From Fimbriimonas ginsengisoli (lineage in GTDB: Bacteria > Armatimonadota > Fimbriimonadia > Fimbriimonadales > Fimbriimonadaceae): a DNA stretch of 64,000 nt. The translations under genes and the position numbers were made by a program. The number at the start of each line of letters is the position of its first letter. The first letter of the stretch is position 1. The notes under the pieces are model-generated. The model was given only the letters and a program-made list of their open reading frames with translations, was not told the origin of the DNA and did no database searches. Below, piece after piece: positions 14,193 through 17,325 of the stretch. Where the stretch lies: assembly GCA_016179045.1 (NCBI GenBank), contig JACOSL010000039.1:45439-109438 (forward strand). Direction: 5' to 3'.

Positions 14193-16289
14193 ATGGAAGC
14201 CCACCTACGACGCCTCACGCTGCTTCGTCAGGCCCTCGACGATTCTAAGGCTGAGTTCCGACCGGGCCAGGAGGACGCCGTCCAAGCTGTGTTCACACCG
14301 CCTTTTCGAGCGGTCGTGGTGCAGGCTACGGGCTGGGGCAAGAGCATGGTGTATTTCCTGGCAACGAGAATGTTGCGCGACCAGGGTAAGGGTCCCACTT
14401 TGGTGATTTCACCATTGCTTTCGCTCATGCGCGATCAACTGCGAGCGGCGTCGAGGCTGGGTCTGAAGGCGGCGCACTACACGAGCGGAAACGAAGAGGA
14501 CTGGCCAGCCGTTGAAGCTGATCTCAAAAAGGGCGTCACCGACCTTCTTCTGATTTCGCCCGAGCGACTAGCCAGCGATTCGTTTCGCGACTTGATCGCG
14601 TCATCCAGCCTTGCCAAGGTCGGCCTCGTCGTGATCGACGAGGCCCACTGCATCTCAGATTGGGGCCATGATTTTCGCCCCGACTACCAGAGGCTTGGTG
14701 CGATGATTCGCAAACTTCCGCCTACCACTTCGGTTTTGGCGACTACCGCCACCGCGAATAGTCGAGTCGTTGAGGATATTCAAGCTCAAATCGGACCCGC
14801 CACCAAGACCCTACGCGGCTCGCTGGCACGCAAGAGTCTTCGACTGCAGGTCGTCGCCGGCCTGGACGTGGCAGAGCGTCTGGCGTGGCTTTCGGACCAT
14901 CTCGACGACCTGCCCGGCAGCGGCATCATCTACACCCTGACAATACGCGATGCGGAGCGCGTGGCACGATGGCTACAAAGTCGAGGCCACGCGGTGTTGG
15001 CTTACCATGCCCGCCTCGGAGAGACAAGAGGCGGTGACGAAGAACGGGTTGAACGAGAAGACCTGCTTCTGAAAAACGATGTGAAGGCTCTCGTGTCGAC
15101 CGTCGCGCTGGGCATGGGCTTCGACAAACCCGATCTGGGCTTTGTCGTCCACTACCAGAGCCCGGGGAATCTCGTTGCCTACTACCAACAGATTGGCCGA
15201 GCAGGACGCGCCATTGATGACGCCGTCGCAGTCCTCTTCATGGCGAACGAGGATGCGGATATCCACCGCTGGTTTGTGGAGAACGCCCGGCCGCATGAGG
15301 CGGGTGTGAGGGCAGTCTTGGACACGCTCGAAAATGGGCCGCGCAGTATAGCCAGGTTGGCCAACGCTTTGAATTTGACCAGGCGGGAGATCGAGAGGAT
15401 TCTAACGACTCTAAGCGTGACCACTCCGTCGCCCGTTGTCAAAGTTGGCCGCGACTGGCAACGAACGCTGGTGCTTTACACGCAGGATGTCGAACGCGAG
15501 AAGAGGCTGAAGGAGCGCCGCTCCCTTGAGCGTGCAAAATTCGAAGACTTCGCCAAGACTGGGAAGTGCCTCATGATGGTCGTTCGAGAGGAATTGGATG
15601 ATCCGTCGGCCGAACCCTGCGGACGCTGCGCCAATTGCCTCAATGCTGAGATATTGCCGTCGACGTTCGACCCTGACACCCTTCAGTCCGCCCTGCTCTT
15701 CCTGCGCCGAAGCGAGGTTCCCATTCAACCTCGCAAGCTGTGGCCGGCCAAGGCCTTGACGAAGTACGGGTTCACGGGCAAAATCCCCGACCAGAATCGG
15801 TGCCGAGAAGGGCTCTGCCTATCGCTATGGGGCGACCCGGGAGTCGCGCGCTGGGTGAGGGAGGACAAGCTACGGGGCCATTACCGCGATGAGCTTGTTG
15901 ATGCCGCTGTGGAGGCCATCCGCCGGTCACCGTTCGACAACTTAGGATGGATATGTGCGGTACCCTCCCTTCGCAGCCTGACGGCTGTCCCTAACTTCGT
16001 TCGGAGGCTTGCATCGGCGCTCGGCTTGCCCTTCGCTGACGCCGTGTCCAAGATCAAGGAGACCGAACCGCAGAAGAAGCAGCTGAACAGCTTCCACCAG
16101 GCGGCCAACTTGGACGGCGCTTTCGCTGTTGGTGACTGTCCGCCAGGAACCGCCCTGCTGGTGGATGACCTGGTCGATTCGGGCTGGACGTTTGCGATCA
16201 TCGGAGCATTGCTCGTCGAGGCAGGAGCAGGAGCCGTGATCCCACTCGCCCTTTGTTCGTCCAGGAGCCGAGGAGACGATGATGAGTGA
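14193..16289 (+). CDS. RecQ-family SF2 DNA helicase fused to a C-terminal ComF/ComFC-type phosphoribosyltransferase-like domain
   Basis: Helicase motifs: Walker A [11 protein letters not shown], the RecQ signature [60 protein letters not shown] and the Zn knuckle CGRCANC. The C-terminus carries the PRPP-loop motif [14 protein letters not shown]. Confidence 0.85.
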   Translation: [698 protein letters not shown]

Positions 16290-17325
16290 ACAGAGCCATA
16301 CGACACAGCTGGCGATCCTGCTAACCGCGCGCTGGTCCGCAAACGGCTCGACACCGCTCTCGAACTCCGAATTCTTTGAGTTGCGTCGATGGATGGGAAC
16401 GGCTGAAGAGTCGGCCGAGGCCCTGCTGCTGGGAAACAGGGACCTTCAGGGCTGCCCAATCGAGCGAGAACGCCTAGATGCGCTACTTCACCGGGGACTC
16501 GGCGTCTTCCAATCGATCGACCGATGGCTGCAGGCTGGCCTGTGGGTCAGGTCCTCGGCAGATGCCGGGTATCCCGCACGGTTCGCGCAATTGAAGCACC
16601 GGGCGCCCGTCTTGCTGTTCGGTTGCGGGGATCCAAATGCGTTCGGCGATCGCGCCTTGGCCATCGTAGGCTCTAGGAACGCTTCAGACGAGCGTCTCTC
16701 TAAAGCTGCTGAGGTTGGCCGGGCCTGCTCTCAATCGAGCATAACGGTCGTATCTGGAGGGGCCAAGGGAGTTGATTCCGCTGCGATGGCAGCGGCGGTG
16801 GCTGGTCGTGGCACCGTCGTAGGCATACTCGCCGACTCTCTGTTGAGGGAGGCGGGCCAAAAGATGTATCGCGAGGCGATCCTGGATGGTCGGATGTGCC
16901 TGATGTCCGAAGTGCACCCCGAGGCAAGATTCGACGTCGGTACCGCGATGGCCAGAAACCGGCTAGCCTACGCCTGCGCGGAAGCCACCCTGGTAGTCGA
17001 ATGCGACCCGAACAAGGGCGGTACTTGGGCAGGGGCCATCGGGGCTCTCAGAGAGGGCAAATCAGTGTACGTGTTGCAGGGTGCCCGGGCGGAAGGCTTG
17101 CTTGAAGCCAAGGGCGCCGTTTGCCTCTCGATCGAGGATGCTTTGCAGCCCGAGCGTCTCATCGCAGGAGCACGGCCGCCTGCCGACGCCCAAATGGAGC
17201 CGTCGCTGTTCGATATTGAGCCCGAAGTCGATGCGTCTCAGCTCGCACCTCAGGTTATTTCGCGCGCTGTGTCTACTCGCCCTGGCGGAAAAAGTCGCGG
17301 TGGTGGCGTACGCCCTCCGGGGTGA
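16279..17325 (+). CDS. DprA/Smf-like (SLOG Rossmann) DNA-processing protein
   Basis: Start ATGATGAGTGA overlaps the last 11 nt of the helicase gene. Family blocks: YPARFAQLKHRAPVLLFGCGD, ALAIVGSRNAS, VVSGGAKGVDSAAMAAA, GTVVGILADSL and FDVGTAMARNRLAYA. The 3' end overlaps convergent yraN by 53 nt. Confidence 0.8.
   Translation: MMSEQSHTTQLAILLTARWSANGSTPLSNSEFFELRRWMGTAEESAEALLLGNRDLQGCPIERERLDALLHRGLGVFQSIDRWLQAGLWVRSSADAGYPARFAQLKHRAPVLLFGCGDPNAFGDRALAIVGSRNASDERLSKAAEVGRACSQSSITVVSGGAKGVDSAAMAAAVAGRGTVVGILADSLLREAGQKMYREAILDGRMCLMSEVHPEARFDVGTAMARNRLAYACAEATLVVECDPNKGGTWAGAIGALREGKSVYVLQGARAEGLLEAKGAVCLSIEDALQPERLIAGARPPADAQMEPSLFDIEPEVDASQLAPQVISRAVSTRPGGKSRGGGVRPPG

Follow-up and report, generated by a model that had tools for sequence, protein, structure and literature searches.

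Between gyrB and the yraN-rnhB genes of the Armatimonadota bacterium Fimbriimonas ginsengisoli (assembly GCA_016179045.1, contig JACOSL010000039.1) lie two overlapping open reading frames (ORFs), which we analysed within a 64,000-nucleotide stretch of this contig (positions 45,439 to 109,438 of the forward strand; hereafter the window, whose numbering is used throughout). ORF1 (14193..16289) encodes a 698-aa protein in which a RecQ-like helicase is fused to a ComF-like phosphoribosyltransferase (PRTase). ORF2 (16279..17325) encodes a DprA-like protein of 348 aa if translated from the ATG at 16279, or 347 aa from the ATG at 16282. Both genes are on the plus strand, as are all the features within and immediately upstream of them. 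An initial annotation, made from the sequence alone, had placed both ORFs at these coordinates and quoted a series of motifs, all of which we located at defined positions in the two proteins. We assign ORF1 as psyrT/rqlH, the putative toxin component, and ORF2 as psyrA/rqlI, the putative antitoxin, and we give a probability of about 85% to the reading that the locus is a two-gene PsyrTA (= RqlHI) toxin–antitoxin-type module acquired horizontally by a Fimbriimonadaceae chromosome.

ORF1 matched the PADLOC profile for PsyrT along its full length (820.3 bits, E-value of 3e-247, with residues 7-692 aligned to positions 8-686 of the 689 in the profile). It also aligned end-to-end with the chromosomally encoded RqlH of uropathogenic Escherichia coli (UPEC), with 47% identity over 697 aa and 10 gap positions. 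The catalytic residues are intact: K49, D148 and D663 of E. coli RqlH, each of which has been tested by mutation, correspond to K50, D149 and D659 of ORF1. The order of domains (ATPase, linker, four-cysteine zinc module and ComF/PRTase, with no HRDC domain matched in the Pfam search) is that by which RqlH was defined (PMC3378886). The superfamily 2 RecQ-type ATPase/helicase core covers residues 20-365 (14250..15287; Pfam DEAD and Helicase_C) and includes the Walker A motif GWGKS (47-51, with K50), the DEAH box (149-152, with D149), TATAN (185-189) and QQIGRAGR (332-339). RecQ cores in the PDB matched it at an E-value of 1e-54. ORF1 passed the NCBIfam recQ_fam subfamily model (254.6 bits against a cut-off of 219.8) and missed the canonical RecQ equivalog TIGR01389 (291.5 bits against a cut-off of 640.2).

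About 200 residues behind the helicase core had been left unassigned in the initial annotation. They comprise a winged-helix-like linker, a four-cysteine zinc module and the N-terminal part of the ComF-like PRTase, as seen when we modelled residues 360-698 with AlphaFold2 from an alignment of 51 sequences (mean predicted local distance difference test, pLDDT, of 92.3). The RqlH-specific linker (residues 366-431; 15288..15485) is predicted to form three helices and a β-hairpin (helices 10-21, 27-33 and 38-49 and strands 56-59 and 62-65 in construct numbering), with block pLDDT of 96-97 over construct positions 11-70 and a weak helix-turn-helix (HTH)-type Pfam match at ORF1 residues 374-408. The RecQ-type tetracysteine zinc-binding module (residues 432-483; 15486..15641) was identified from the alignment and a weak Pfam RecQ_Zn_bind match. 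It is helical in the model, and its cysteines C459, C476, C479 and C482, the last three within CGRCANC (476-482), are invariant across 51 ORF1 homologues.

The ComF-like type I PRTase domain occupies residues ~494-698 (15672..16286), with the phosphoribosyl pyrophosphate (PRPP) loop at 657-666 (nt 16161-16190). The Pfam Pribosyltran match to residues 602-695 was below threshold, and the domain was established from the AlphaFold2 model and a Foldseek search, in which Helicobacter pylori ComF (7p0h) was the best PDB match and dozens of type I PRTases (OPRT, APRT, HGPRT and PRPP synthetase) came next. Within the PRPP loop, D658, D659, S663 and W665 are invariant across the 51 homologues. The helicase–PRTase fusion proposed in the initial annotation hinged on this fold being there, and that reading was right. 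The domain is ComF-like in fold and fused to a helicase, and it missed the ComF family model TIGR00201 (16 bits against a cut-off of 233.55).

ORF2 was assigned with PADLOC, where it scored 275.7 bits against PsyrA versus 93.1 against ShosA, and with Pfam (DNA_processg_A at an E-value of 4e-37, plus SLOG). It shares 40% identity with UPEC RqlI over residues 6-259, the region that is sufficient for neutralisation (PMC4670107), and carries the motifs IVGSRNAS (129-136), SGGAKGVDS (159-167) and ARNRLAYA (225-232). The cut-offs for canonical dprA were missed (TIGR00732, 95.7 versus 191.15 bits; PRK10736, 59.8 versus 495). An AlphaFold2 model of ORF2 built from 53 sequences had a mean pLDDT of 87.5, with block values of 79-98 over residues 1-300. 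It consists of an N-terminal five-helix, SAM-like domain (SAM, sterile alpha motif; residues 1-85; 16279..16533; helices 7-16, 29-39, 43-50, 63-70 and 73-85) and a DprA/SLOG Rossmann domain (residues 86-300; 16534..17178), the latter supported by Pfam, the model and Foldseek. The best Foldseek matches, whose alignments cover both domains, were the DprA proteins of Rhodopseudomonas palustris and Streptococcus pneumoniae (3maj, E-value of 8e-14; 3uqz, 6e-13; 283-308 columns) and E. coli ShosA (8zva, 1.3e-13).

Conservation among ORF2 homologues stops at about residue 300, and the remaining residues 301-348 (17179..17325) form a disordered, unconserved C-terminal tail, as judged from block pLDDT of 46-58 and a tail alignment. 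ORF2 stops resembling the PsyrA profile and its close homologues by about residue 300-312, and its alignment with UPEC RqlI stops at residue 259. The last 53 nt of the tail are antisense to the 3′ end of yraN, a convergent overlap that had been reported correctly. Other Armatimonadota likewise have short forms, of 301-331 aa. A C-terminal HTH is not a defining feature of the antitoxin family, because RqlI residues 1-320 complement (PMC4670107).

The two genes are coupled in an operon. The overlap between the end of ORF1 and the start of ORF2, noted initially as ATGATGAGTGA, is real, and the junction reads GAGGAGACGATGATGAGTGA, in which the ORF1 stop codon TGA is at 16287-16289 and two in-frame ORF2 ATGs are at 16279 and 16282. 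A GAGGAG Shine-Dalgarno sequence for ORF2, read from the sequence, lies within the 3′ end of ORF1 (16270..16275). The second ATG is the more likely start, because it is 6 nt from this Shine-Dalgarno sequence, gives an 8-nt gene overlap as in two Armatimonadota relatives (the first ATG would give 11 nt), and yields a 347-aa product that is an exact match to a public protein (P0121).

Upstream of ORF1, the region after gyrB had been called AT-rich. Taken as a whole, the 176-nt spacer has a GC content of 0.58, like other spacers in the window (0.50-0.69), and the description holds for a core of about 60 nt (14067-14126), where GC falls to 0.40-0.45 in 40-nt windows. This AT-rich core (14067..14135) is a candidate promoter region for the operon and contains TATAAC at 14109-14114; we only infer that it serves as the promoter of the pair. 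A scan for consensus sigma-70 promoters and terminators gave no site in the leader or after ORF2, and the consensus may not suit this phylum. No structured or regulatory RNA was found in the leader (fold z = -0.9, no Rfam match).

More than 8000 full-length homologues of ORF1 were retrieved, and the RqlH-specific C-terminal half alone gave 203 representative clusters at an E-value of at most 1e-30. The closest (58-62% identity) are from Armatimonadota/Fimbriimonadaceae. Among eight independent loci, six have a DprA-like gene directly downstream of rqlH and two, on an Arthrobacter megaplasmid and a haloarchaeal plasmid, have a solo RqlH, in agreement with the published Gram-positive/Gram-negative split in RqlH pairing.

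The location of the pair was different in every relative examined. On three unrelated replicons it is nested in other defence operons. In an Armatimonadota genome (L002 2096-16238, a type I restriction–modification (R-M) island in which an M78 peptidase and HepT are also encoded) and on an IncF plasmid of E. coli (L054 2670-12749) it separates hsdS from hsdR of type I R-M systems, and on a plasmid of Acinetobacter (L062 1-11773) it separates pglX from pglZ of BREX-1. Elsewhere it lies between pfkB and bipA (a Fimbriimonadaceae metagenome-assembled genome), adjoins parAB (a Nostoc plasmid) or forms a two-gene islet between gntU and yhgN (the UPEC chromosome). At most about one third of complete E. 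coli genomes have a related pair. Eleven plasmids carried full-length ORF1 homologues, and none of 50,697 phage records did, the matches there being limited to the helicase core.

In the Fimbriimonadales, the pair was absent from the 10 kb downstream of gyrB in all five relatives (67-74% GyrB identity). It was likewise not found beside the conserved rnhB-yraN unit in any of three relatives, the F. ginsengisoli type strain included (62-70% RNase HII identity), in each of which a different gene lies beyond yraN (yjbR, a DLH hydrolase, or a small ORF and aspS). The two Armatimonadota relatives that do possess the pair, with its 8-nt overlap, carry it at other sites.

Codon usage of the pair was the most deviant among the long genes of the window, with relative synonymous codon usage distances to the pooled window genes of 0.133 (ORF1) and 0.140 (ORF2); in the remaining genes with 450 or more codons, the distance is 0.056-0.102. 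GC at third codon positions (GC3) was 0.687 in ORF1 and 0.662 in ORF2, against 0.765-0.837 in ten neighbouring genes, which confirms the by-eye impression of more A/T at these positions. The description of the pair as a lower-GC insert holds at third codon positions and relative to yraN and rnhB (bulk GC of 0.67-0.68), and fails for bulk GC relative to gyrB (0.60 and 0.62 in the pair, 0.61 in gyrB). The full-length profile matches, the RqlH/RqlI homology, the shifting location, the nesting in R-M and BREX operons and the atypical codons all back the suggestion in the initial annotation that this might be a mobile defence-like cassette.

Several observations weigh against a horizontally acquired toxin–antitoxin module. 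In the window, the pair is flanked by housekeeping genes and not by further defence genes. No integrase, tRNA, transposase or convincing direct or inverted flanking repeats mark an insertion at the pair, and the only tRNA (40987) and tmRNA (49960) of the window are far from it. The GC3 deviation is moderate and similar in a few other window genes. ORF2 does not possess the C-terminal HTH of E. coli RqlI. Solo actinobacterial RqlH acts as an ordinary helicase, and Russell and Mulvey argue against RqlHI always being a toxin–antitoxin element (PMC4670107). Lastly, gyrB-seeded scans of genome and metagenome collections and RNase HII-seeded look-ups did not find a clean empty gyrB|yraN site; the nearest relatives are at about 70-74% (GyrB/RNase HII), and synteny around both anchors is already rearranged in them. 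Because these relatives lack the pair at either flank while the anchor synteny is already broken, they support an insertion only indirectly, and horizontal acquisition has good support but lacks the proof that an empty site would give.

PsyrTA of Pseudomonas syringae was reportedly described by Sberro in 2013 and Millman in 2022. Shotgun cloning revealed the system as a toxin–antitoxin pair; protection against phages was demonstrated later, and deletion of psyrA by itself was not possible (bioRxiv 10.1101/2022.05.11.491447). Our literature search found no mechanistic study of PsyrTA. In UPEC, rqlH and the overlapping downstream DprA-like gene rqlI form an operon, and RqlH alone causes SOS induction, filamentation and loss of viability in a manner that requires D663 of the PRPP loop (PMC4670107). 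RqlI co-immunoprecipitates with RqlH only if the PRTase domain is present, and still neutralises RqlH when it lacks its C-terminal HTH (PMC4670107). Mycobacterium smegmatis RqlH, composed of an ATPase (residues 1-346), a specific linker of about 90 aa, a tetracysteine zinc domain and a ComF/PRTase-like C-terminal domain, with no HRDC, is a 3′-5′ single-stranded DNA (ssDNA) translocase/helicase whose helicase activity resides in residues 1-505 (PMC3378886). RqlH's PRTase domain is dispensable for helicase activity, yet it is the toxic moiety, and the literature on homologues indicates that the helicase domain also restrains or guides it. In the related ShosTA system, it is essential that the PRTase toxin binds PRPP, the DprA-like antitoxin is able to bind both ssDNA and RecA, and the trigger is proposed to be either ssDNA of the phage or a shut-off of the host together with rapid turnover of the antitoxin (PMC11961720, PMC12961424).

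Carried over to the Fimbriimonas pair, these roles suggest that its most likely function is that of a defence module whose genotoxic PRTase is kept in check by the DprA-like protein. A single transcript would carry ORF1 and ORF2, and translation of the second would be coupled to termination of the first, so that antitoxin is made along with toxin. In an uninfected cell, ORF2 would keep the PRTase domain of ORF1 inactive. Upon infection, the antitoxin would be titrated or lost, by analogy with ShosTA because of phage ssDNA or replication intermediates, or because of host shut-off. The freed PRTase might then use PRPP in a way that damages DNA or nucleotide metabolism, with the helicase providing DNA targeting or regulation, and replication of both host and phage would stop.

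A different account would make the genes a housekeeping pair for repair or recombination, in which RqlH is the RecQ-type helicase of the organism, as has been suggested for M. smegmatis, and the DprA-like protein is a mediator that loads RecA on chromosomal DNA. The genuine 3′-5′ helicase activity of RqlH and the lack of a classical RecQ in mycobacteria with RqlH (PMC3378886) fit such a role, as does the position of the pair among the core genes gyrB, rnhB and lipB. Moreover, the related DprA-like antitoxin ShosA binds RecA and promotes repair (PMC12961424), and Russell and Mulvey's own model is that RqlH and RqlI cooperate on DNA (PMC4670107). The initial annotation had named synteny across the clade together with native codon usage as the mark of a housekeeping pair; we looked for this in the relatives and found that the position is kept in none of the eight, and codon usage is atypical. 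Elsewhere the pair occurs within R-M and BREX operons and on plasmids, and the domain that helicase activity can do without is the toxic one. PsyrTA, furthermore, gave phage defence, and its psyrA gene could not be removed on its own (bioRxiv 10.1101/2022.05.11.491447). We therefore regard a housekeeping role as unlikely, with a small chance of being correct.

Still less probable is a non-canonical transformation module, the other option raised in the initial annotation, in which a RecQ-like helicase fused to ComFC stands in for ComFA and DprA hands incoming ssDNA to RecA. Among solved structures, H. pylori ComF is indeed the closest to the PRTase domain, ORF2 has a DprA fold, and a gene that appears to encode a type IV pilus ATPase-like protein, assigned from PilB/GspE-type motifs, is located 3 kb away (20549-22315). 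Yet ORF2 reaches only half of the dprA cut-off (95.7 versus 191.15 bits) and the PRTase domain falls far short of the ComF model (16 versus 233.55), whereas defence-system profiles match both proteins far better. There is no second DprA or PRTase in the window, and no comEC, comEA or comFA was noticed beside the pair, although no search was aimed at them. The characterised homologues, finally, are toxic and neutralising rather than required for transformation (PMC4670107). Taken together, a DNA-uptake function is very improbable.

A fragment of the Dpd system (7-deazaguanine DNA modification/restriction) with ORF1 as the DpdF helicase has a negligible chance of being correct and was rejected on scores and neighbours: many PADLOC DpdF profiles and the NCBIfam DpdF model (E-value of 5e-50) do match ORF1, but the strong matches lie mostly on the RecQ-like N-terminal part and reach at most 305 bits versus 820 for PsyrT, NCBIfam NF041063 gives 170.9 bits against a cut-off of 550, and the flanking genes are gyrB and yraN, with no other dpd genes.

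Although otherwise unconserved, the antitoxin tails share a short motif. In ORF2 this is PSLFD at residues 308-312 (SLFD at 309-312, nt 17203-17214). Among 113 RqlI/PsyrA-type antitoxin tails (from homologues P0121-P0240 plus L063, L054 and L058), LF[D/E] was found in 54 versus about 5% of shuffled tails, and [S/T]LF[D/E] in 34 versus 0.6%. The LF[D/E] is often within 15 residues of the antitoxin C-terminus. In E. coli, Nostoc and other branches, x-[S/T]-L-F-[D/E] is replaced by Q-x-x-L-F or QLSLL: QPELF is present in UPEC RqlI, QMGDLF and QPELF in the copy on the E. coli plasmid, and QLSLL at the end of the Nostoc copy. We take the motif to resemble the consensus for binding of the bacterial β sliding clamp, QL[S/D]LF. 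It is conceivable, as a long shot that draws on these tail statistics, that PsyrA/RqlI tails carry a short linear motif by which the antitoxin docks on the β clamp or on a different hub of the replisome or of repair; just as well, the motif might serve for docking to RqlH or be without any role. If such docking were true, PsyrTA would be wired to sense the status of the replisome or of ssDNA, which would provide a testable trigger mechanism for the family. The papers that we consulted do not mention the motif.

The Pfam neighbours of the pair are GyrB, UPF0102/YraN, RNase HII, LipB and PyrD, the first three as named in the initial annotation. The rnhB and yraN genes overlap by 22 nt in the window (17599-17620) and in all three Fimbriimonadaceae relatives (L055, L056 and L057, at 8597-8618), so rnhB–yraN is a conserved coupled unit. 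In L055, the convergent yjbR gene overlaps the 3′ end of yraN by 51 nt, and a convergent overlap at this end is therefore not peculiar to the window. A TfoX_N-domain protein is encoded near rnhB in the F. ginsengisoli type strain (L057 2801-3139). TfoX is a competence regulator in other bacteria, so the clade may have genuine competence genes elsewhere.

Further away, an RNase P RNA of bacterial class A, scoring 243 bits, fills 20151-20482 (+), the gap between an FAD oxidoreductase gene and the pilB-like gene, and the ORFs listed within this gap at 20137-20445 and 20213-20530 are spurious. The tmRNA gene is at 49960-50316 (-), with the tag peptide ANESYAYAA. The tRNA-Arg(CCT) gene (40987-41062) is flanked by a gene for a Schlafen AlbA_2 and HATPase_c_4 protein (39430-40821 (-), GC3 of 0.668) and a 259-aa ORF of no assigned family (41542-42321 (-), GC3 of 0.635). 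Around this tRNA, the region 39430-42321 may represent a second small patch of horizontally acquired DNA.

The names that NCBI gives to these genes, "RecQ family ATP-dependent DNA helicase" and "DNA-processing protein DprA", invite the wrong inference of a role in repair or competence. Both genes are better read as a defence-type PsyrTA/RqlHI toxin–antitoxin pair, which standard defence-annotation tools would call automatically. The locus leaves knowledge of the PsyrTA family unchanged. It does add an Armatimonadota member with a short, HTH-less antitoxin, together with examples of the pair inside type I R-M and BREX operons.

How does the pair compare with known systems? With ComFA/ComFC and DprA of natural transformation it shares the same three folds, namely a superfamily 2 helicase, a ComF-type PRTase and DprA. 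Unlike in that system, the helicase is of the RecQ clade and is fused to the PRTase, and both the comF and dprA equivalog cut-offs were missed.

ShosTA (PMC11961720, PMC12961424) resembles the pair in that a PRTase-containing toxin is neutralised by a DprA-like antitoxin with SAM and Rossmann domains, and it has a DNA damage and filamentation phenotype and an abortive-infection-type defence. The N-terminus of ShosT, unlike that of ORF1, is a pyrophosphatase-like domain with no helicase, and there is no binding between ShosT and ShosA (type IV), in contrast to RqlI, which co-precipitates with RqlH. Membership in ShosTA was rejected: the N-terminus of ORF1 is a helicase, ShosT is not among the 25 best-scoring of the 39 PADLOC matches to ORF1, and ORF2 scored 93.1 for ShosA versus 275.7 for PsyrA.

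Within the PsyrTA/RqlHI family, we compared the pair with CHARACTERISED members, namely M. smegmatis RqlH, the chromosomal copy of UPEC RqlH/RqlI, and PsyrTA. M. smegmatis RqlH (MSMEG_5935; PMC3378886) has the same domain order and spacing as ORF1 and likewise lacks HRDC; unlike the Fimbriimonas pair, mycobacterial RqlH is solo, without an RqlI partner, and has been studied only as a helicase. The pairs of P. syringae and E. coli F11 (PMC4670107) have these two genes in this order too, in frames that overlap or are coupled. They encode a RecQ-like helicase of about 690 aa with a C-terminal PRTase, in which the Walker A Lys, the DEAH Asp and the PRPP-loop Asp are kept, and a DprA-like partner with N-terminal helical and Rossmann domains, and they share an accessory, patchy distribution. 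By every defining criterion that can be read from its genes, the Fimbriimonas pair is thus a member of PsyrTA/RqlHI. It differs from other members in its Armatimonadota host, in its housekeeping flanks with no defence island and in being known here from genes alone, and from E. coli RqlI (431 aa, with a C-terminal HTH) in its antitoxin of 347/348 aa, which is HTH-less and has a disordered tail overlapping yraN. These minor features, a short HTH-less antitoxin with a disordered tail running antisense into yraN, the phylum and the lack of adjoining defence genes, distinguish the locus within an architecture that has been described and named since 2012-2015, to which it adds one more member and no new architecture.

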